Shown: positions 911 through 33,005 of the stretch, one piece after another
How the letters are laid out: each line of letters opens with the position of its first letter
Position numbering within the stretch: position 1 is the first letter of the stretch
Source of the DNA: a virus
Lineage: Duplodnaviria > Heunggongvirae > Uroviricota > Caudoviricetes
Direction: 5' to 3' (one strand)
IMG/VR virus record: IMGVR_UViG_3300044259_000172
DNA length: 64,000 nt
The notes under the pieces: model-generated
Told to the model about the DNA's origin: nothing
Databases searched by the model: none
The model's input: only the letters and a program-made list of their open reading frames with translations
Program-made: the position numbers and the translations under genes

Positions 911-2226
911 CAAACCTTTATTGTATCTCTATCAAGAGTCATAGAATCTTTAACTATTTCTACAACAATCCAAAATTTATCCTTTTGGAACATTCTTCTC
1001 AATGAGGTTATCAAATAATTTCCAGAATAAGCAAGATCGGGGGTTACAGTTCTTCCTATGTCAATATTTTCAACGTTAGGCATATCGAACTTTAATATCA
1101 TTCCCACCTTCATTTCCAATTCTCCAGGAAGAATTCCTTCTATAACAAAATTATCTAATTGGAACATTTGAGAAAGTCTAGGTGAATACCAATCTTGTAC
1201 CTGATTTCCTCCTGGAACTTCATTTGTAAAAAGTCCTTGATGTTTTACAAAAACTCTGGTATCCATTGTCATGTCATATAGATTATTGAGTTGATTTGAA
1301 GAAGAAAGAGGATATGAATCTCCCAATTTTCCTTTTAGATGTTTTGATTTATAAAAATCTTCAAAATAGTTATATTCAAAATCTTCTGATCCTTTATGAA
1401 TTATGTCAATCAATTTAATTCTATTTTTATACATCCCAAAGGACATATTCTCTAAAACATCTGAAGATTTTTTGATGCTCATCTTTTCAAATCTCATCGT
1501 ATCTTTTTCTTGACGTTGAGAATATGCATGTTTATAATCTTCTACTTTTCTCATAGGATCATACGAAACCTCAGCAAATGGCTTATTTTTAGTTTCATCA
1601 ATCAAATTTTCAAGAGCCAAGAAATTAAATCTATCTTTGTCTTCAAAGAAAAGAAAATTTCCTCCTACATATTCTTCATCTTGAGCTCTTGAGGCTATCC
1701 ATGAACAAGCGTTCAAAGGATTCCAATTAGGTATAACAAAGCATTGCTTCAATTTTGTAGTTGAGGCTAATAATTCCTTCGAAGATTTTAAGTAATTTTC
1801 TTTGATATCCTTAATAGCATCCTGATAAAATACTGAATCATATGCTTTTGAAACTTTAGTGAATGCATTTAAATACATTTCAGCAGAACAAAAATTCAAA
1901 GTATATTTTAAAACACCAAAATTGATTTGTTCTCTATCAGAGATTTTGTAAATCATGAATGTTCCCTTTAAGGTACTATATCCATCAAATACTTCAATTT
2001 CTAAAGTTTCCTCTCCTATTATAGGAATATTTTTGATCATATTTTTCGTGTCAACTATGACCAATGAACCAGTCATTGTAGGAGATAAAAGATCCTCAAA
2101 AATATTAAGTTCAACAGCATTAGGAATGACATCAATATTGTTGATTTTTAATTTTCTATATTCATAATATCCTGGATACTGAGCAATATTTTTCGAATAT
2201 TCTTTTGAATTAAAAATTACACTCAT
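910..2226 (-). CDS. putative virion structural protein (baseplate/tail module, 438 aa)
   Basis: large ORF in block adjacent to tail fiber genes; terminator hairpin overlaps stop; product assignment is contextual only. Confidence 0.5.
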   Translation of the reverse strand: MSVIFNSKEYSKNIAQYPGYYEYRKLKINNIDVIPNAVELNIFEDLLSPTMTGSLVIVDTKNMIKNIPIIGEETLEIEVFDGYSTLKGTFMIYKISDREQINFGVLKYTLNFCSAEMYLNAFTKVSKAYDSVFYQDAIKDIKENYLKSSKELLASTTKLKQCFVIPNWNPLNACSWIASRAQDEEYVGGNFLFFEDKDRFNFLALENLIDETKNKPFAEVSYDPMRKVEDYKHAYSQRQEKDTMRFEKMSIKKSSDVLENMSFGMYKNRIKLIDIIHKGSEDFEYNYFEDFYKSKHLKGKLGDSYPLSSSNQLNNLYDMTMDTRVFVKHQGLFTNEVPGGNQVQDWYSPRLSQMFQLDNFVIEGILPGELEMKVGMILKFDMPNVENIDIGRTVTPDLAYSGNYLITSLRRMFQKDKFWIVVEIVKDSMTLDRDTIKV

Positions 2227-2779: not shown

Positions 2780-3658
2780 TTAACTTCCATACGTAAATAA
2801 GTCTGCAATAATACCTGATCTTGATTTTCTGATATCTTCTTTCGTAAGAGGATACAATTCCAGAAAGGTCAAATCTAAATTAGTAAATGCCATATTTTGA
2901 TCTTTAAGAATTTTAGGACCATATGGAGCATAATCAACATTCATATTAGTCAAAACTAATGTTTGTAATTTAGGAATTCTAGTTCCTACAAATTGTAATT
3001 CAAAAGAATCAGGAATAAAATATGATGAAAGATCTCCTCCTGACAATTCAGGATGAGATGATAATTCTAGATAATAAATTAGATTTTCTAAGGTTTTCGA
3101 TTCGGTAGAATTTCTAGGGGCAAATTCCCAAGAAAATGTAAATGTTCTAAACGACACCCCATTATAGTAAATTTCTTTGAATGGATTAGAAACTGCTCCA
3201 ACATTTTTTTGCATAAGTTTTCTTAAACCTAAGGTAGGAGCAATATCAATCAATTTATTCTTTGCAGCATCTCCAAAACTTCTACCGGCATCCGCTACTG
3301 AAGAAATATCTCCATTATTAACTCTTGCTATAGCTTGTTCAAGGAATCCTGTTTCTTGTTGAGACCAATCATTTGACCAAGAAAACGGAATATTTCTAGG
3401 AAGAGGTAAAGCAATCGAGGATGTAAGTCTACTAACAGCAGAAAATTTATTGCCTCCTGATGTATCTTCAACTGGAACGGTAGTTCCAGCAGAAGTTATA
3501 GTTGAAGATTTTGTATCATTATGCCTAGTGTTTTTAACAGTTATCTGAGTATAAGTTATATTATCAGGAACTTTTGTCCCTGATATTGTAGATGAGTTTG
3601 AATTATTTTCATCATCAGATGTTATTGTCGAACTAAGATCAAATACTTGAAGTGCCAT
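2780..3658 (-). CDS. putative virion structural protein (292 aa; S/T-rich N-terminus)
   Basis: ORF; context next to tail genes; product assignment contextual only. Confidence 0.5.
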   Translation of the reverse strand: MALQVFDLSSTITSDDENNSNSSTISGTKVPDNITYTQITVKNTRHNDTKSSTITSAGTTVPVEDTSGGNKFSAVSRLTSSIALPLPRNIPFSWSNDWSQQETGFLEQAIARVNNGDISSVADAGRSFGDAAKNKLIDIAPTLGLRKLMQKNVGAVSNPFKEIYYNGVSFRTFTFSWEFAPRNSTESKTLENLIYYLELSSHPELSGGDLSSYFIPDSFELQFVGTRIPKLQTLVLTNMNVDYAPYGPKILKDQNMAFTNLDLTFLELYPLTKEDIRKSRSGIIADLFTYGS

Positions 3659-3679
3659 TTACTATTTATAAGATTTATT

Positions 3680-3997
3680 TTAAATACCCTTTGAATTTAT
3701 AAGGTATTCATATTTTCCAATAATAGAAACTAGTTGATTTCTATATTTGAAAATCCTATCATTCAAGACCCATCTTTCATAAATTTCTTGTTCATAATCT
3801 TTTCCTTTTCTATTCAAAAGAAATGAGTCTTTTAAGAAGAGAGGAAAGTCATACTTATTGACTCCGCATCCAGTGATCATCTTTTTTCTGGAATTGATTT
3901 CTTCTTCAATCATAAGTGAATTAAAAAAATTAAAAGATTCCTTAAGAAAGGACAGAGCTAATTCCCTATTTCCTTTAATGATTTCAATTTTTTCCAT
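3680..3997 (-). CDS. hypothetical protein (105 aa)
   Basis: ORF track; overlaps upstream gene by 14 bp, typical operon packing. Confidence 0.45.
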   Translation of the reverse strand: MEKIEIIKGNRELALSFLKESFNFFNSLMIEEEINSRKKMITGCGVNKYDFPLFLKDSFLLNRKGKDYEQEIYERWVLNDRIFKYRNQLVSIIGKYEYLINSKGI

Positions 3998-4724: not shown

Positions 4725-5168
4725 ATGAGTGGAAGACGGACATATCAAGGACAATATTATCCAATAAATGAATCGAAATATATTGGAGATCCTACAAAAA
4801 TAGTTTATAGATCATCATGGGAACTTCTCTTTTCAAAGTTTTTGGATTTTAATTCAAATGTAAAATTTTGGTCTTCAGAAGAAATTGTAATTCCTTATTA
4901 TTTTCCTTTAGACGGAAAAATGCATAGATATTTTCCAGATTATTGGGTAGAATTTCATAATGGGAAAAAGGTCATTATTGAGATAAAGCCTTATAATGAA
5001 ACTATAGAACCTGTCCTTAAAAAGGGAGGAAACAAAAGAGTTTTTGCGGATAGAATGGCAACATATTTAAAAAATAAAGCAAAATGGGAAGCTGCGAAAG
5101 AATTCTGTAAAGACCGAGGATGGGAATTTCATGTTTTTGATGAGCATTATTTAAAAAGATTGAAATAA
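4725..5168 (+). CDS. hypothetical protein with PD-(D/E)xK-like motif (FPDYW...VIIEIKP)
   Basis: plus-strand ORF after strand switch; D...E-x-K spacing consistent with restriction-endonuclease-like fold (weak). Confidence 0.45.
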   Translation: MSGRRTYQGQYYPINESKYIGDPTKIVYRSSWELLFSKFLDFNSNVKFWSSEEIVIPYYFPLDGKMHRYFPDYWVEFHNGKKVIIEIKPYNETIEPVLKKGGNKRVFADRMATYLKNKAKWEAAKEFCKDRGWEFHVFDEHYLKRLK

Positions 5169-5195
5169 ATATCAAATAAGAATAAGGAATAGAAA

Positions 5196-8100
5196 TTGGC
5201 TTTGGATATTAAAAAGGTCTCAATTGGAGAAATATTTCCATTTGAAAATAAAGATGAAGGATTTTCAGGAGATTCTGTTAGAGAAGCATTTGACAAATAT
5301 AATCAAAATTTTGATGCAATAAGTTCTCAAATTGGTGGAGGTTCAGGAACTGGTACAAATATTTCTGATTCCTATATTGATGCAAATACGGATTATACAC
5401 AATTCTTTAATGGAGAATCTCTTCTAGATTGGTCAGTTTCTAATGGAACTTTGACCATTGATAATTCTACATCAGAAGCTATCTGGACAGCAAATTCAAA
5501 TTCATATATTTACAGAAAATCAACAGCAATTAATGGGAAAAGATTCACTCATTTTGTTATAGAAATTGTAAGGGTTTCAGGAGGAGCGGTTCCTAATCAA
5601 AGAGTAACTACATTTTCTCCTAATCACGATTTTAATTTTTCTGTAAATTATGCTCAACCTATTGGAAATCCAGTTTCAATTCTGGTAGGTGACACAACTA
5701 TTTTAGTCTTTCCTCTTTCTGATATTCAAGATTGGACTGCAGGAACTACAACAGGTTTAGCTTGTAAATTATCAAATTCAGCAGGATCATATAGAATTAA
5801 ATCTATTAGATTAGTAGGACCTGATTCTTCATTCGTTCAACAAGCTTCTATAGCAGCCGGCAATGCTGCTACTCAGGCAGAATTAGCACAGACTTTAGCT
5901 GAAGCATCTGCTCAACTTTCAGATATTAGAGCTACTGCTGCTAATGATGCTAAAAATTTAGCTGAACAATTTAAAGATCAATCCAATGATTTTGCAAATC
6001 AAGCCCAAGGTTTTGCAATTGATGCCTCAACATATTCTGAAAAATCAAATTTTTCAGAATTAATGTCTACAGCAGCATCAAGATTTGCTCTTTATCAGCA
6101 AATAAATCCTAATGCCAATTGGGATTTTTCTGATGGAGGAATTCATGGATGGACAGGAGTTAATGCGACTTTAACAAATTCAGGATCAACTCTTAAAGTA
6201 ACTCATACTGATCTTGATGGGCAGATTTTTTCCCCTGTTTCTCTTTCATCTTCTGGGGTGATTTATACAAAAGTTGTAATCAAAGTTCATGTGGAAACCG
6301 GAGTTGTTCCGGATTTTACCCAATGTAGATTATTTTATACAACCACATCAAGACAAGCATTTAATGCTGATTATTACATTTCTCCTATAGGGTTTGAAAA
6401 ATTAACTCTTAATGAGAATAATAATGTATATTTAATGTTTGATGCTGACACACCAGGAAGCCCTCAAAGTGATTGGGAAACGTCAACAATAAGGCAATTG
6501 AGATTTGATTTAGCGAATCAAAATCCATTAGTCTATGATATTGATTACATTTATCTTCTTGGAACAGATTCTGCATTTCCTTATAAACAAGCTCAAGCTG
6601 CTGCAACATCAGCCCAAAATGCTGGAACGTCTGAAACTGCTGCTCAGCAATTTGCTCAAGCTTCTCAGACATTTGCTACAGCGGCTCAAACTTCAGAATC
6701 AAATGCTTTGACTTCAGCAAATCAAGCTTCTGTATCTGAAACAAATGCTCAAGGAGCAGCTACAACTGCCACAACTGCTTCATTGGCAGCAGCTCAGTCT
6801 GAATCAAATGCCTCAAATTCATCAGGACAGGCACAATCATATGCAACCCAAGCAGCCTCTTCTGCTTCTTCTGCGGAAGGTTCTTCAGTTGCAGCTTCAC
6901 AATCAGCAACAGTTGCAGCTAGAGTTTCTCAAGGAATTCCGGTTTCTCTAAATCCTGTATTCAATAATTGGCCAACATCAGGACTTCCATACGGTGGGCA
7001 ACTTCTTCCTGGAACTAATTTAGTCAATATTGTCAAAAATACTGCCAATGCAATTTATTCGCCATATGCTTTGCAATTTAATATTCCTTCATCTTCAGAT
7101 TTTGGAGTAGAATTTAATAGTTCATCGACCCAGACTTCTGTTCAATTAGTTGATGTAGAATATTATGTAGCAGAAATTGATATGGCTTTGGTAGCAGGTG
7201 ATGGGGCAGCAACTGGAATTGAAATTGCTAAAATATTTTCTGACACTACTTCTGTTGTGACTACTATTCCATTTTCAAGTTTCACTAAATTCTCTTCAAA
7301 TCGCTATCAATATTCAGGATTAGTTCCGCTATCAACCCCTACTGGCAAAACTATTTCTACGATTAGAATTAGAATTTATGGAAATAATGCAACAATAGGA
7401 ACAGGAATAGCAAAAACTATAATTTGGCATAAAGTAAATATTAGAAGTGCTTCTTCATCAGAAATAGTTGCTAATAAAGTAAATGGAGAAGTTTATGCTT
7501 TAGTTCAACAAGAAGCTGATGCTAGAATTGCTGCGGATGGAAGTATCTCATCTAAGTATACTGTAAAAATTGATAATAATGGTTATATCTCTGGATATGG
7601 ACTGATTGCGACAGAAAATAATGGTGTTCCAACTTCAGAAATGAGTTTTCTAGTTGATAAGTTCAAGGTTGTTTCTCCTGGAGCAGGTGGAACAGCTGGA
7701 ACTCCTACTCAAATGTTCTCAGTGGGTTCTGTGAATGGAATTACTTCGATGGTTCTTAATGGAAACCTAATAGCTGATGGAGCTATTTCTTCTAGATCTC
7801 TTTTAGTTGGAATAGGCGGAAATTTAATTGATAATGCAGATTTCTCAGCAAGTCTGAATTATTATTCAATGTATCAACAAGGAACATCTCATACCCTTAC
7901 TCTCGACAATTCATCAGTGTATTCAATTCCTCAAGGATCTTTAAGACTTTATGGAAACACCGCTTCTACGACTGATTTTGCAAATTGCCTTATGATGGAT
8001 TCTTCTGGAAATTTTAAGTCATATTCGATTACTCCAGGAAAAAGATATGAATTTTCTGTTTATCTTTTTGGTTTGAGATGTAAAGGTGGCCCACGTATCC

Positions 8101-17423: not shown

Positions 17424-18566
17424 TCAATGATGTACATACGTAGGATTTAAAAATTCAAAATAATTCTTTATATCCTCATAATTTAATTCATAATCAAATT
17501 TACACCACAATTGTTCCATTGCTTTAATCACTTCCCCTAATTCCTTTGAAGGTTTCAGATTGAAATCTTCCATAACCCTCTCAGCCTTCACAGGAGACGG
17601 ATTTTTAGGAAGATGAAAGTAACCAAACATCCTAAAATCGATAGTCCTGGCAATGTCATACATGATAGGACCATATTTAAATAAGATATAATTTGGATGC
17701 TCAGTTGTAGTTTCCAAAATATCAATCAATTCCAAAGTTTTATTTTCTACTTTAGACAATTTGAGATTTCGAATTTGATTCTTCGAAAGCCCCATAGAAT
17801 AAAGAGTCAGAACTGGATGATCTGGAAAATGAATCATTTTTTCATAATTCAACTCTTTCCCAAAAATTTCTTTAGAAACTCCTGTATAATTCATATGATG
17901 AAAAATCAATTTGTTTAATTTATTCAATTTCATCGAATTCATTTTCCAAATTTCTGAATGGATTCTTTCTTTGGAAATCATAGACAAAGATTTTGAATGT
18001 TTTGAAATGATATCCAAAACATCTTGGTCGATTTTAAAATCTTGATATTTCACACAAAATCTGAAAAATCTAAGAATGCGAAGATAATCTTCCTGGATAC
18101 GGTCTTCTGGATTTCCAATAAAGACTACCTTTTTATTCTGAAGATCTTGAATTCCTCCAAAATAATCATAGATATTTCCTTCAGAATCCATAGAAAGAGC
18201 ATTAAATGTAAAATCTCTACGAGAAGCATCAACCTCCCAATCTTCAACAAATCTCACTTCTGCGTGGCGGCCATCTGTTTCAACATCCGCTCGAAGAGTA
18301 GTGATTTCAAATGATTCATCATTAAAGGTAACAGTAACTGTTCCATGTTGAAGCCCTGTAGGAGCAAAGGACAATCCCACTGCTTCCGCAATATCCTTAA
18401 TATTGTCAGGAAAGGCTGTCGTGGCAATATCAATATCATTTACAATTGTTCCGGAAATTGCATCCCTTACACAACCTCCTACCAATCTGGCTTGATAACC
18501 AAAATGATTAATCAATTTTAAAATTGAGATCGCATTTTTGAAATTTTCAGGAATTTCGATTTTCAT
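17424..18566 (-). CDS. cca: tRNA nucleotidyltransferase (CCA-adding enzyme / poly(A) polymerase head-domain family); start revised to ATG 18566
   Basis: LVGGCVRDAISG...DIDIATTA motif (GGxVRD...DxD); RBS AGGA before ATG 18566; a hairpin lies inside the ORF-track N-terminal extension. Confidence 0.75.
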   Translation of the reverse strand: MKIEIPENFKNAISILKLINHFGYQARLVGGCVRDAISGTIVNDIDIATTAFPDNIKDIAEAVGLSFAPTGLQHGTVTVTFNDESFEITTLRADVETDGRHAEVRFVEDWEVDASRRDFTFNALSMDSEGNIYDYFGGIQDLQNKKVVFIGNPEDRIQEDYLRILRFFRFCVKYQDFKIDQDVLDIISKHSKSLSMISKERIHSEIWKMNSMKLNKLNKLIFHHMNYTGVSKEIFGKELNYEKMIHFPDHPVLTLYSMGLSKNQIRNLKLSKVENKTLELIDILETTTEHPNYILFKYGPIMYDIARTIDFRMFGYFHLPKNPSPVKAERVMEDFNLKPSKELGEVIKAMEQLWCKFDYELNYEDIKNYFEFLNPTYVHH

Positions 18567-18634
18567 GGGATATTTTCCTATTTTAGAAATGATTATGGGT
18601 TCAGTATATACTGAACCCATTTCTCTGTACATAT

Positions 18635-18853
18635 TTAAATCAAAAAATTTATGAAAGCTAATGATGTAATATATGATTGGATAATACACATTATAAAGAT
18701 TAATACGTAAATTACTTGCACTATTAGATTTTTTTCATCTAATTCAATTTGTTTCGAAACGTATTTTGACACAACATTTGCAATAGCACAGGAATAACAA
18801 ATTATATAGACGACTAAAAGGATACTTATTATATAATGAGCCGCTGTGATCAT
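18635..18853 (-). CDS. possible small hydrophobic membrane protein (72 aa)
   Basis: ORF track; two hydrophobic stretches; could be artefact. Confidence 0.3.
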   Translation of the reverse strand: MITAAHYIISILLVVYIICYSCAIANVVSKYVSKQIELDEKNLIVQVIYVLIFIMCIIQSYITSLAFINFLI

Positions 18854-27607: not shown

Positions 27608-27613
27608 AATATT

Positions 27614-27689
27614 GGTGTGCCCTGTCAGGCTTGAACTGACGACCCTCTGCTTAAAAGGCAGATGCTCTAACCAACTGAGCTAAGGGCAC
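27614..27689 (-). tRNA. tRNA-Lys (anticodon UUU), CCA encoded
   Basis: minus-sense GTGCCCTtaGCTCAGTTGGTTAGAGCatCTGCCTTTTAAGCAGAgggtcGTCAGTTCAAGCCTGACAGGGCACaCCA: 7-bp acceptor, D-arm, anticodon loop CUUUUAA, T-arm all canonical. Confidence 0.8.
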
Positions 27690-28844: not shown

Positions 28845-29145
28845 TTTCTTCCTTTTCCAAAAATTTAAATTGAGAATAATCTCTATACATTCTAGTTTCA
28901 GTATCAGAATTTAGAAAATATTTCCCATTCTTGGAATAAACCATACAAAGAAATAGAATATTATAAGAAGAACTCATATCTTTATGGATATCAATTGATT
29001 CAATTTTAGCTTGATATCCCGAATATTTTCCCTTTGTAATTTCTACAATTTTGTGGAGATATTTCTTATTAAGCTCATTCTGTCTATTTGACAAATAAAC
29101 CTGAAGCTTTTTCCTATAATCTAAAAATTCTTCAATTTCATTCAA
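28831..29145 (-). CDS. hypothetical protein (104 aa)
   Basis: ORF track. Confidence 0.45.
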   Translation of the reverse strand: MNEIEEFLDYRKKLQVYLSNRQNELNKKYLHKIVEITKGKYSGYQAKIESIDIHKDMSSSYNILFLCMVYSKNGKYFLNSDTETRMYRDYSQFKFLEKEENDTN

Positions 29146-29524
29146 AATCTTTATTCCTTTTCATCAACAAATATTGACTAAGATATTTTTCAATATTTTC
29201 TTTTCCTACAGGATTCTGAGAATGAACATAAAATTTAAAATCATCTGCCAAGATATTAAAATCAATATCAACATCTACCAAAGATTTTGCAATAGATAAT
29301 CCATTTTCAGAATCTTGTCCTAAATCATGATCAAAAGAAATATAAGAAATCTTTTCAAAATCTCCTATAAGATCGAAATATGATTTCCATAGTGTCTTGA
29401 TTATTGGATTTTGAGACTTAATAAATGTATTGAACAAATAAAGGGCATCAGAAGAATTTCTAATTATAACATCAAATTTATCATTTTCAGATGGATCACG
29501 TTCATCATCAATAAAAATTTTCAT
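29138..29524 (-). CDS. hypothetical protein (128 aa)
   Basis: ORF track. Confidence 0.45.
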   Translation of the reverse strand: MKIFIDDERDPSENDKFDVIIRNSSDALYLFNTFIKSQNPIIKTLWKSYFDLIGDFEKISYISFDHDLGQDSENGLSIAKSLVDVDIDFNILADDFKFYVHSQNPVGKENIEKYLSQYLLMKRNKDFE

Positions 29525-29760
29525 TACACAAATTCTCCTTTACAAATTTTCAAGATTTCTCTAGAAGAAACTACATTAACTCTAGAATCTTCAAGGATTT
29601 CCTTGAGTCTTCTTTTAGGAATATCATAATGATTATATACAGATTTATGAAACCAACATTTCTTGATTTCTAAATCTTTAGCCATTTCATGTAGATTTTC
29701 TTCCGAATATGGAATACAAACCAAATGTCTTGAAACATCAGCAAAATATCTCATACCCAT
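29524..29760 (-). CDS. DUF4031-like protein
   Basis: HLVCIPYSEENLHEMAKDLEIKKCWFHKSVYNHYDIPKRRLKEI matches the CHL..D...ELH.FA..LG....WF......HYD...KR pattern of DUF4031. Confidence 0.5.
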   Translation of the reverse strand: MGMRYFADVSRHLVCIPYSEENLHEMAKDLEIKKCWFHKSVYNHYDIPKRRLKEILEDSRVNVVSSREILKICKGEFV

Positions 29761-30140: not shown

Positions 30141-30662
30141 TTAAAGGTATGAGAAATCTGATGTCAATTCTTTTGCATCGGGACCAAATGCAAACATTCC
30201 TGTTGTAACATCATAAGCCTTGAAAATCAAGGATCCATCCTTTAGATGGTATTCAGGATCAATGACTTCTTTTGCGATACAAGCCAATTGATCAGAAAGA
30301 GCTATCGCTTCTTTAATCTTTGCATAAGATGCCTTTTTGACATAAACTGTACCGAAACCTTGAGGAGTTTCTTTTTTCCACTTGAGATATTCGGAAGAAA
30401 GAAATTGATTAATCCCCGAAGAAATGAATTTTTCAAATGTTTCATGAAAAACAGAAGTTGCGTGTGAAGCCTGGGCAGCTGCCCTGCCTTTAGTCATAGA
30501 CAAAGGCAAATCGTCTCGAACAACAATGTATAGACGACTCAATTTTTCATCTGAAGATACCAACATTTCATTTAATTGAAACTTTTCAGATGATTTTTGG
30601 GGAGGAATTCCTCCCCAAAAACTTTTTTCGATAAATGTATTTGCTTTCATATTCATATTCAT
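30141..30662 (-). CDS. peptidyl-tRNA hydrolase PTH2-family protein
   Basis: YIVVRDDLPLSMTKGRAAAQASHATS matches the PTH2 core (vvRtDL.M.kGKiaAQcsHAa). Confidence 0.55.
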   Translation of the reverse strand: MNMNMKANTFIEKSFWGGIPPQKSSEKFQLNEMLVSSDEKLSRLYIVVRDDLPLSMTKGRAAAQASHATSVFHETFEKFISSGINQFLSSEYLKWKKETPQGFGTVYVKKASYAKIKEAIALSDQLACIAKEVIDPEYHLKDGSLIFKAYDVTTGMFAFGPDAKELTSDFSYL

Positions 30663-31487: not shown

Positions 31488-31552
31488 GATATAATCTCCA
31501 AATACAAAGAAGGGCCAATGGCCCTTCTAATTTATATGAAGCTATATATTAT

Positions 31553-32443
31553 TTACTTCTTTAGAGAATCATTTTCTTTCAAAAGATCATCAGAATTTAG
31601 AAGCATTCCATTGCTTGTTCCTTGAACTTTTGGCATCTTACCATCCCAACGTTCAATTGCCTTATATTTTACAAGCTCAGGGGTAATAGATTCTGACAAA
31701 ATCTTATTTGCCTTTGCTTGGGCTTCTGCTTCAAGAAGAACAGATTCAGCTCGACCTCGCGCATCTTCAATTGCCTTTTGAGCATCAGCCTTTGCAGATT
31801 CTACTTCTTGAGTCTTTTGCAAAGTTTTCTGGGATGCATTGATCTTTGCATTAATCATATTAACAACTTCATCAGGAAGTCTAAATGCTCCTGTCCAATA
31901 AAGTCGTTCTACCTTGATGCCAATAGGATCAAATTGAGACCTAACTCGAGCTTCTACATTCTTAATGAGTTGTTCCTTGCCAGGACCATAAATTTCATCT
32001 ACTCTCATTTTAGAAGCTTCAGAAACGAGAGCATCCCGAACTGCATTTCGAATTACAATCTGATTGAGTTCTTCCGTTCCCTTACGATATCGCTGGAAGA
32101 TATTGGAAATCTTTGAAGGATCAAAAGAATATGCAATACCAATATCAGAATTTACCTTCAGTCCATCTCGGTCTTGGAACGTAATAGACTCATCTTCTGG
32201 ACTCGAAGAATCCTTGATATTATCCCAGGTATAATTTTGGGTGAATGTAGGAAATAGGAACAAATCTTCATTCCACCCGATAAAATATCGACCTGGACCT
32301 AGAATTTGATTATCAACCCCCTTAGAATCTCCTAGCAAATATACTTTTACCCCAACTTGACCAGCTGGAACCTTTGAGCAAGAAGCCATAGATAGGCAAC
32401 CAAGAAGCAGAGCTCCAATAGTAATAATTTTCTTAATACTCAT
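31553..32443 (-). CDS. SPFH/band-7 (prohibitin/HflKC-like) domain lipoprotein
   Basis: signal peptide and lipobox MSIKKIITIGALLLGCLSMASC; band-7 core with C-terminal EAQAKA-type coiled coil. Confidence 0.75.
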   Translation of the reverse strand: MSIKKIITIGALLLGCLSMASCSKVPAGQVGVKVYLLGDSKGVDNQILGPGRYFIGWNEDLFLFPTFTQNYTWDNIKDSSSPEDESITFQDRDGLKVNSDIGIAYSFDPSKISNIFQRYRKGTEELNQIVIRNAVRDALVSEASKMRVDEIYGPGKEQLIKNVEARVRSQFDPIGIKVERLYWTGAFRLPDEVVNMINAKINASQKTLQKTQEVESAKADAQKAIEDARGRAESVLLEAEAQAKANKILSESITPELVKYKAIERWDGKMPKVQGTSNGMLLNSDDLLKENDSLKK

Positions 32444-32449
32444 TTTTTA

Positions 32450-32740
32450 TTAATCCTTTTTGTTAAACATAATTTTTGCGGTTGAATTGATAGCTTTAAT
32501 TACCAATGTAAAACATACTGCAAAAGTTGCGAAAAATCCAGCAAATCCTAATAGGACAGAAATATCAGAAGATTGCGAAATTGCAAAAGGGCCAATTACC
32601 CCAAAATATGAAATTGCAATAATTACAGCCAACATCATATAACCAAGAGGTTTCCAATAGGTTATTAAAGGATTTTCAATTTCTTTGAATTCTTCAATTT
32701 TTTCGAGATTTTCGAATGCTTGTTTTTCATCGTCATTCAT
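32450..32740 (-). CDS. two-TM membrane protein (possible SPFH partner)
   Basis: hydrophobic helices LGYMMLAVIIAISYFGVIGPFAI and LLGFAGFFATFAVCFTLVI; 6-bp gap to SPFH gene. Confidence 0.5.
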   Translation of the reverse strand: MNDDEKQAFENLEKIEEFKEIENPLITYWKPLGYMMLAVIIAISYFGVIGPFAISQSSDISVLLGFAGFFATFAVCFTLVIKAINSTAKIMFNKKD

Positions 32741-32741
32741 G

Positions 32742-33005
32742 TTATTTTCTTTCGCTTTCTTCTTTCAGAATTGAAATTTCAGATTTCAATTCTGAAATTT
32801 CTTTTTCATATTTTGCTAAATTATGATTATATGACTTTTCATACATTTGCAAATTTTCTGAATTGTGCATTAATCTTCTAACTTCTGCAATAGACTGTTC
32901 ATTTCCGAGAAGATTAAAACCATTCCAAGAAATACCAGACAAAACCCCTTCTTTTGGAATGTATAATATCTTCTTAATTTCTTCCCAAATATCAGATCTA
33001 TTCAT
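32742..33005 (-). CDS. hypothetical coiled-coil protein (87 aa)
   Basis: ORF track. Confidence 0.45.
   Translation of the reverse strand: MNRSDIWEEIKKILYIPKEGVLSGISWNGFNLLGNEQSIAEVRRLMHNSENLQMYEKSYNHNLAKYEKEISELKSEISILKEESERK

Follow-up and report, generated by a model that had tools for sequence, protein, structure and literature searches.

Two adjacent genes on the minus strand of the phage sequence IMGVR_UViG_3300044259_000172, whose whole 64,000-nucleotide stretch is here called the window, encode a small helical-hairpin membrane protein and, downstream of it, an SPFH/prohibitin-family lipoprotein. They are new members of a gene pair that is catalogued as two separate PHROG families, phrog_1130 and phrog_200, and is found in well-known phages. 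As judged from gene arrangements, the two genes constitute a near-obligate, apparently translationally coupled and sometimes fused unit of co-inheritance. We assign a probability of roughly 55% to the reading that their products together build an SPFH scaffold of two subunits at the outer face of the cytoplasmic membrane, which would be analogous, and not homologous, to SPFH-NfeD complexes. The linkage of hairpin and SPFH genes, and their fusions, appear to be undescribed in the literature searchable here.

A first-pass annotation of this DNA had proposed an SPFH lipoprotein gene followed by a gene for a small membrane protein with two transmembrane (TM) segments. Its coordinates for both open reading frames (ORFs) are exact, as is the distance of 6 nucleotides (nt) that it gave between them. 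The order it described is reversed: since both genes lie on the minus strand, the partner gene is upstream and the SPFH gene is downstream.

The SPFH lipoprotein and its hairpin partner

The product of the downstream gene matches the Pfam family Band_7 (PF01145) over residues 24-220, with 85.7 bits against a gathering cut-off of 23.6 (E 5.1e-24), and phrog_200, annotated "lipoprotein", over residues 2-285 (E 4.5e-81). A profile of 15 sequences searched against PDB chains retrieved prohibitin-1/2 at E ~1e-16, as well as erlins, HflC/HflK and QmcA. An AlphaFold2 model based on 61 homologues (mean predicted local distance difference test score, pLDDT, 82) was matched by Foldseek to subunits of PHB1/2, HflK/C, stomatin, erlin and QmcA with probability 1.0 over 260-320 columns; the QmcA match has E 5.6e-9. 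Prohibitins are the best matches by both sequence profile and fold, and cover nearly the full length. The protein failed the test against the HflK equivalog model TIGR01933, scoring 23.7 bits against a cut-off of 159.4.

The N-terminus reads MSIKKIITIGALLLGCLSMAS-C22-SKVPAG, in which the Cys of the putative lipobox (...LSMAS-C22-SKV) is almost invariant across a 61-sequence alignment of close homologues. A second, more canonical lipobox, LLG-C16, is present in the same N-terminus. A strict lipobox pattern is matched by 190 of 260 distinct homologues, and many of the others retain a Cys after a small residue; in some homologues the Cys is missing, and the hydrophobic N-terminal anchor stays uncleaved. 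We conclude from these patterns that the SPFH protein is an exported lipoprotein with predicted lipidation at Cys22. Together with the Band_7 and phrog_200 matches, the nearly invariant C22 bears out the prohibitin/HflK-like SPFH lipoprotein of the first-pass annotation. The C-terminal coiled coil that it had also proposed is seen in the AlphaFold2 model as a 62-residue helix (residues 191-252), which may be the wall-forming helix of an SPFH assembly; a second short helix spans residues 255-264. In the conserved motif near the C-terminus, G268 is invariant and W266 and P271 are nearly so among 15 diverse phage homologues, and both W266 and G268 are invariant among the 61 close homologues.

SPFH homologues occur in 752 phage records. 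The window protein is at most ~51% identical to that of any GenBank phage. Homologues in GenBank are labelled "transposase", "putative serine protease", "protein QmcA", "HflC membrane protease regulator" or "lipoprotein", of which the "transposase" and protease names seem to be mistakes passed on from record to record.

The partner used alone as a query recovered only itself in tblastn searches against phages, in pattern scans of IMG/VR, and in a word-indexed search of 5.8 billion proteins. Its library matches, both weak, were to phrog_1130 "membrane protein" (E 5.9e-4) and to one Pfam family below threshold. Its family was uncovered by collecting the ORFs upstream of SPFH homologues and then building profiles. 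An ORF of 55-100 amino acids abuts the SPFH start in an IMG/VR relative, ORM_20, RpAliso, Pseudomonas phage 5400, Burkholderia phage phi1026b, coliphage N4 (gp19) and a P1-like element, and each encodes two hydrophobic helices with the same short turn between them. A leave-one-out hidden Markov model (HMM) was made from 43 distinct upstream ORFs, omitting the window's own copy, and was searched against all 1175 six-frame segments of the window. The partner ORF was the only significant match (E 2.3e-8; next best 0.68). Eighteen of 22 family members match phrog_1130, at best with E 1.4e-26. Counted at E<=0.001 among 1.84 billion representative proteins, the family has 614 clusters; of the 150 listed, nearly all have lengths of 47-96 amino acids.

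In accord with the small two-TM protein proposed earlier, the AlphaFold2 model of the partner is a helical hairpin (mean pLDDT 81) whose helices, residues 3-54 and 59-94, are joined by a turn at residues 55-58; the hydrophobic stretches are at residues ~32-54 and ~62-86. The family consensus is [VLI]-L-P-x-L-[IV]-S-[AS]-x-[DSN]-[TDS]-x-x-V-x-x-G, in which P51 of the window protein is invariant and S55 and Gly65 are nearly invariant. With 96 amino acids, the window partner is the longest of 176 distinct members measured (median 67), through its acidic N-terminal extension of ~30 residues. Across the family, basic residues gather in the tails at both ends of the chain, and acidic ones in the turn: per sequence, the loop has 0.26 K+R and 1.09 D+E, and the C-terminal tail has 4.04 K+R. 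This distribution predicts a topology in which both termini are cytoplasmic (N-in/C-in) and the conserved turn points toward the periplasm.

A weak PADLOC match of the partner to PDC-M52B (6.6e-5) was rejected as chance, since it is shared by 0 of 21 other members. PADLOC gave no match for the SPFH protein or for any of 15 homologues.

Gene linkage and natural fusions

We examined 95 phage loci. IMG/VR contributed its 80 best and the close relative L001, and GenBank another 13; the window itself completes the set. The partner was found at 89 of them. It ends no more than 30 nt from the SPFH start at 82 loci, and a 4-nt ATGA stop/start overlap is present at 65 of the 89; at the remaining loci, the partner and SPFH genes are separated by one or two small ORFs or by a spacer that reaches ~360 nt at most. 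The first-pass annotation had made absence of co-occurrence in other phages one half of its own refuting condition, and the conserved two-gene arrangement in phages defeats that half. The very small second ORF (43-54 amino acids) that lies between the two genes in L023-L026, L006 and L096-L097 is hydrophobic with two TM helices in L023-L026, and is not so in L006.

To define lineages, SPFH proteins were clustered at 70% identity and binned by identity to the window SPFH protein. The partner lies just upstream in 33 of 34 non-redundant lineages at >=40% identity (24 of 24 at >=45%, and 9 of 10 at 40-45%). It is present in 2 of 3 lineages at 35-40% identity, 3 of 9 at 30-35%, and 0 of 6 below 30%. 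In a bacterial sample of one genome per species, the closer SPFH homologues have the partner, whereas remote SPFH lipoproteins of Caulobacteraceae and Bacteroides are without it. A reverse search, from partner homologues, gave 10 of 11 places with a Band_7 gene immediately downstream or separated only by a single tiny ORF, and the sole exception is a variant whose SPFH gene carries an internal deletion. Loci L098 (2195-2414) and L099 (2192-3034) have an identical hairpin gene, but the SPFH gene of L098 is broken by an internal deletion of ~620 nt and a 1-nt insertion. The deletion is at the short repeat GAAGCG.T.AA and leaves ~48 N-terminal and 25 C-terminal SPFH codons, suggesting that the SPFH gene is dispensable in that phage.

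In some lineages, hairpin and SPFH protein are encoded by a single ORF. Fused ORFs were found at the genome loci L106, L108, L109 and L115, and four called proteins from the 120 top-ranking SPFH homologues (P0065, P0075, P0099 and P0150) are fused as well. These are eight sequences in total, at least two of which are the same gene (P0150 is the L106 gene). The order within the fusions is hairpin, basic linker, lipobox signal and SPFH domain. This order exports the SPFH domain only if the C-terminus of the hairpin is cytoplasmic, which agrees with the charge analysis.

The module also resides in bacterial genomes. Among 5426 complete Escherichia coli genomes in RefSeq, 460 contain DNA of the hairpin and SPFH module, at 310 chromosomal and 201 plasmid places, many of them on replicons of ~97 kb (e.g., NZ_CP033848.1 64163-65207). 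Within the two-gene match in E. coli, the Prokaryotic Genome Annotation Pipeline (PGAP) names only the SPFH gene, and the 78-amino-acid hairpin ORF is apparently unannotated. In L001, which is the closest IMG/VR relative, the pair is flanked by homing-endonuclease-like ORFs at 3179-3781 and 5066-5620, one with a GIY-YIG-like N-terminus and one with an HNH-like C-terminus, as judged by eye from the translations. The module may lie in a region of gene flux.

Proposed scaffold and related systems

In the two-subunit scaffold that we propose, the partner would be a small hairpin in the cytoplasmic membrane, with both ends cytoplasmic and a conserved polar turn of 4-7 residues at the periplasmic face. 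The SPFH protein would be exported, anchored via the lipid on Cys22, and would, like solved SPFH proteins, oligomerise through its coiled-coil helix of ~60 residues and the EKWDGxLP motif. The resulting ring or cage would sit on the outer face of the cytoplasmic membrane. The hairpin would supply in trans, at a ratio of about 1:1, the membrane-embedded part that HflK/C hold as their own N-terminal helices, and both subunits together might fence off a patch of host membrane during infection. The Cys-less homologues that keep a hydrophobic anchor favour a cytoplasmic-membrane location, as do the fusions.

Some previously catalogued pairs belong to the same two families, namely N4 gp19-gp20, phi1026b gp49-gp48, and SSU5/P1-like E. 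coli phage-plasmid loci. They share with the window pair its order (hairpin first), a tight junction, the hairpin motif P-x-L-[IV]-S...V..G and the SPFH motif EKWDGxLP. The window pair differs in having a 6-nt spacer instead of the usual 4-nt overlap, and in the acidic extension of its hairpin. The role of the catalogued pairs has been described as unclear (PMC13239085; PMC8540360).

Among systems with solved structures, PHB1/PHB2 (PDB 8rrh, 9o9z) provides the best match, which extends over almost the full length. However, the PHB1/PHB2 complex is eukaryotic, is a hetero-oligomer of two SPFH paralogues, has TM anchors, and has neither a lipoprotein signal nor a hairpin partner. HflK/HflC-FtsH (PDB 7vhp, 7wi3, 9cz2) resembles the proposed arrangement in that periplasmic SPFH domains with a long coiled-coil helix are located on the inner membrane. 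HflK/C are anchored by their own N-terminal TM helix, whereas the window protein has a predicted lipid and a separate hairpin, and it fails the HflK equivalog model. QmcA-YbbJ (PDB 8z5g) is similar to the window pair in that an SPFH protein is encoded beside a small polytopic membrane partner. According to Tan et al. 2024, as cited in PMC13086221, it is a cage of 26 SPFH-NfeD heterodimers with 1:1 stoichiometry. NfeD (YbbJ) adds to this cage a membrane part comparable to that proposed for the hairpin, and the window pair would have a similar ratio. The window partner is without the oligonucleotide/oligosaccharide-binding (OB)-fold domain of NfeD, and the QmcA cage faces the cytoplasm (PMC13086221), whereas the window SPFH domain is predicted to be exported and lipid-anchored.

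In Kayvirus (MbpV-MbpS) and the Kuttervirus PhiSH19, a gene for a small membrane protein likewise abuts or overlaps the phage SPFH start. Kayvirus MbpV is from another family, with a single TM helix and a long charged tail. The SPFH proteins of these phages are ~25-30% identical to that of the window, or too distant to be among the listed phage matches. In PhiSH19 (JN126049; L186), an unannotated two-TM ORF of 72 amino acids at 1432-1650 (minus strand) overlaps the SPFH start by 4 nt. It belongs to another family, and its strongly basic loop suggests the opposite topology. The PhiSH19 "superinfection exclusion protein", encoded next to the SPFH gene, was considered as the SPFH membrane partner and was rejected, being a separate soluble acidic protein.

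Several observations weigh against the proposed scaffold. The main weakness concerns sorting of the lipoprotein. In E. coli-type Lol sorting, a Ser at position +2 after the lipidated Cys directs lipoproteins to the outer membrane. Ser is at +2 in 134 of the 190 lipobox-matching homologues, which by E. coli rules implies sorting to the outer membrane, away from the hairpin. The unusual acidic N-terminal extension of the window partner weakens the positive-inside argument for that copy. The C-terminal 30 residues of the SPFH model have low confidence, and this tail is poorly defined. Distant phage SPFH clades, namely those of Kayvirus, PBS1, Ccr5, Bruynoghevirus, Kuttervirus and Halorubrum viruses, occur without phrog_1130, so the hairpin is not universally required; in most of these clades a different small membrane protein is encoded just upstream (MbpV, PBS1 gp69, Ccr5 gp175, a Bruynoghevirus ORF and the PhiSH19 ORF). 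The loci used to measure linkage are a best-scoring and partly redundant sample. Finally, adjacency and fusion demonstrate a functional linkage and not a defined architecture.

A more far-reaching proposal, which we hold tentatively and at somewhat less than even odds, is that many phages, prophages and phage-plasmids carry a self-contained "periplasmic prohibitin" nanocage. A ring of dedicated helical hairpins, representing a new class of SPFH partner that replaces NfeD, would hold a lipid-anchored SPFH ring in place on the inner membrane. Some lineages would make the pair as a single precursor, possibly split by signal peptidase II, and the nanocage would set apart a patch of host membrane in order to capture a host inner-membrane machine or to keep the DNA of rival phages from entering.

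Locus layout, possible roles and significance

The window is a ~30% G+C stretch of a large virulent-type phage. Its phage origin is borne out by the replication and tail proteins that it encodes: its ORFs include a DNA polymerase, a UvsX-like recombinase, an SbcC-like nuclease, a DnaB helicase, a primase, a CCA-adding enzyme and tail proteins. When 12 kb surrounding the locus was compared by megablast with 50,697 phage records, no nucleotide-level relative was detected, and other metagenomic contigs (e.g., L095) hold an identical copy of the locus. Coordinates of the features of the pair are listed in the table.

Table. Features of the hairpin-SPFH gene pair, in positions of the window (TM, transmembrane segment)
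Feature	Position	Strand	Basis	Remark
Partner gene, 96 amino acids, helical-hairpin membrane protein, phrog_1130	32450..32740	-	ORF, family HMM, AlphaFold2	Upstream gene of the pair
Acidic N-terminal extension of partner, residues ~1-31	32648..32740	-	Alignments, length statistics, model	Predicted helical
Partner TM1, residues ~32-54	32579..32647	-	Alignment	Ends in Pro51 of motif L-P-x-L-[IV]-S
Polar turn of partner, S55-S61 (SQSSDIS)	32558..32578	-	Model and charge counts	Predicted periplasmic; most conserved part of the family
Partner TM2, residues ~62-86	32483..32557	-	Alignment, charge counts, model	Includes Gly65
Basic C-terminal tail of partner	32453-32482	-		After TM2
Spacer from partner stop codon to SPFH start, 6 nt	32444..32449	-	Direct sequence reading	
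SPFH/prohibitin-family lipoprotein gene, 296 amino acids, phrog_200	31553..32443	-	Pfam, PHROG, PDB profiles, Foldseek	Downstream gene
Lipoprotein signal peptide (residues 1-21) and predicted lipidated Cys22	32378..32443	-	Sequence, alignment	
SPFH (Band_7) domain, residues 24-220	31784..32374	-	Pfam envelope	Beta-rich and helical core at pLDDT 80-97
Long coiled-coil helix, residues 191-252	31688..31873	-	AlphaFold2, pLDDT ~88-95	Aligns with HflC and prohibitin
C-terminal motif A-I-E-[KR]-W-D-G-x-[LM]-P, residues 262-271	31631..31660	-	Alignments	
Intrinsic terminator-like hairpin, 25 nt past the SPFH stop	31508..31528	-	Pattern scan and folding	9-bp stem with 6 G-C pairs, then UUUGUAUUU

An AAGGA motif resembling a Shine-Dalgarno sequence lies inside the 3' end of the partner gene, ahead of the SPFH start. 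The preceding ORF (32742..33005, 87 amino acids) has its stop codon 1 nt before the partner ATG. The terminator-like hairpin, after which a U-run follows, folds with -23.4 kcal/mol (z -4.4; 0 of 200 shuffles are equally stable), and the pair therefore closes a transcription unit. Sites resembling promoters are not enriched in the region (25, compared with 21.8 in shuffled sequence), and therefore no promoter was called. A perfect A/U-rich hairpin of 15 bp is found on the mRNA strand at 32763-32797, within the 3' end of ORF 32742-33005 and ending 22 nt ahead of the partner ATG (-17.1 kcal/mol, z -3.6). It may affect translation or processing, or may be a mere product of the repeated EIS-LK coding sequence.

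The neighbours scanned, from ~28.2 to 36.2 kb, encode PHROGs of unknown function, PTH2, DUF4031, cREC_REC and a phosphohydrolase. Minus-strand ORFs 29138-29524 and 29524-29760 match Pfam cREC_REC (PF20274) and DUF4031 (PF13223), based on the identical contig L095. The window also has a set of minus-strand genes related to tRNA, consisting of an ORF for a CCA-adding tRNA nucleotidyltransferase-like protein (17424-18689), tRNA-Lys(UUU) (27613-27689), and a PTH2-family peptidyl-tRNA hydrolase ORF (30141-30662) whose assignment is taken from the same identical contig. This set may reflect a theme of tRNA repair or anti-defence. In the Caulobacter phage Ccr5 (L011, 1501-3801), the SPFH gene is two genes upstream of a gene for the RNA ligase RtcB, and in Pseudomonas aeruginosa PA14 the SPFH gene paFlo8 is embedded in an rtc RNA-repair locus (PMC13086221). 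An association of SPFH and Rtc genes may be recurrent.

The genomic context and the dispensability of the SPFH gene suggest that the module has an accessory function, early or middle in infection. The scaffold might be used to insulate or remodel the envelope against incoming phage genomes or membrane-acting stress, or to sequester a host inner-membrane protein such as FtsH. The literature searchable here contains no functional study of phage SPFH proteins, only speculation: a phage genome paper proposed HflK/C-like control of FtsH (PMC10269572), and another proposal is help with secretion (PMC7150955). The roles put forward in the first-pass annotation, namely reorganising membrane microdomains, protection against membrane-acting defence and timing of lysis, are speculative. 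With low confidence throughout, we rank superinfection exclusion or envelope protection above modulation of FtsH, and the latter above lysis timing.

Among phages, lipoproteins and small two-TM proteins typically serve as exclusion factors, as with T4 Imm, Sp and the phage Sie lipoproteins. An early inner-membrane protein and a periplasmic lipoprotein could accordingly block the genome entry of other phages or lysis from without. This account concerns the role of the module and is compatible with a two-subunit scaffold; we regard it as unlikely, though it has several points in its favour. The module lies among DNA and nucleotide metabolism genes of early or middle type, rather than among structural or lysis genes, and it is present in virulent and temperate phages and in phage-plasmid-like E. 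coli replicons. The SPFH gene appears dispensable in one natural variant, and PHROGs places the partner family in the category "moron, auxiliary metabolic gene and host takeover". However, 0 of 22 partner members match any superinfection-immunity family of Pfam at E<=0.1, the PhiSH19 gene bearing an exclusion label encodes the soluble protein noted above, and no experimental report was found in the literature.

The SPFH protein might instead act alone, joining or competing with host HflK/C-FtsH in the periplasm to alter proteolysis by FtsH, in which case the small gene would be incidental. Such a mimic might sway the choice between lysis and lysogeny, or alter how stable phage proteins are. 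It has been proposed in phage genome papers (PMC8540360; PMC10269572), and the protein shares its fold and predicted compartment with HflK/C. Yet the score against TIGR01933 is far below its cut-off, prohibitins are the best matches in sequence and fold, and strictly virulent phages, N4 among them, commonly carry the family; obligately lytic Pseudomonas phages also encode an SPFH family member (PMC8540360). Given its near-obligate linkage and the fusions, the upstream gene is unlikely to be incidental, and we consider this account more doubtful than exclusion.

Less probable again is a function in lysis timing, in which the hairpin would resemble a class II holin or antiholin and the SPFH lipoprotein would control its oligomerisation, and hence the moment of lysis. 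Two TM helices, a predicted N-in/C-in topology and a basic C-terminal tail do correspond to class II holin architecture, and 2 of 22 members weakly match Pfam Phage_holin_2 (E 0.0028), although neither match reaches a curated threshold. The Kayvirus counterpart, mbpV-mbpS, adjoins lysK in a region that also has holA (PMC7150955), but MbpV is another kind of protein, with a single TM helix. Conservation in the hairpin falls on its predicted periplasmic turn and not on its helices. A test for location in a lysis cassette failed, as no recognisable lysis gene is among the scanned neighbours, and the functional neighbours at other loci are mostly genes of DNA and nucleotide metabolism; lysis timing is the least favoured role on these grounds.

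The first-pass annotation had likened the pair to SPFH-NfeD/YqiJ operons. NfeD precedes the SPFH gene in yqiJK, yuaF-floT and yqeZ-floA. The order and coupling of the window genes resemble such operons, and the 1:1 complex of 26 heterodimers described for QmcA-YbbJ gives a precedent, but a divergent NfeD is a very improbable identity for the partner: 0 of 22 family members match the NfeD or YqiJ Pfam model at E<=0.1, at which no other family matched reproducibly, NCBIfam gave no match for the partner, and its all-helical model ends ~10-20 residues past TM2, which leaves too few residues for the OB-fold domain that defines NfeD (PF01957), so membership of the NfeD family is refuted.

The pair is among the commoner accessory membrane modules of phages that have no assigned role. 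In existing annotations the hairpin ORF is frequently missing, and its SPFH neighbour often carries a wrong name, "transposase" or "serine protease". SPFH proteins, which include prohibitins, stomatins, flotillins and HflK/C, occur in every domain of life, but the roles of their cages and the contributions of NfeD-type partners are poorly understood. The phage version is small, widespread and probably dispensable, and can be studied genetically in coliphage N4 and E. coli phage-plasmids. With a minimal partner and a topology fixed by natural fusions, it would lend itself well to studying how membrane helices are engaged by an SPFH scaffold.

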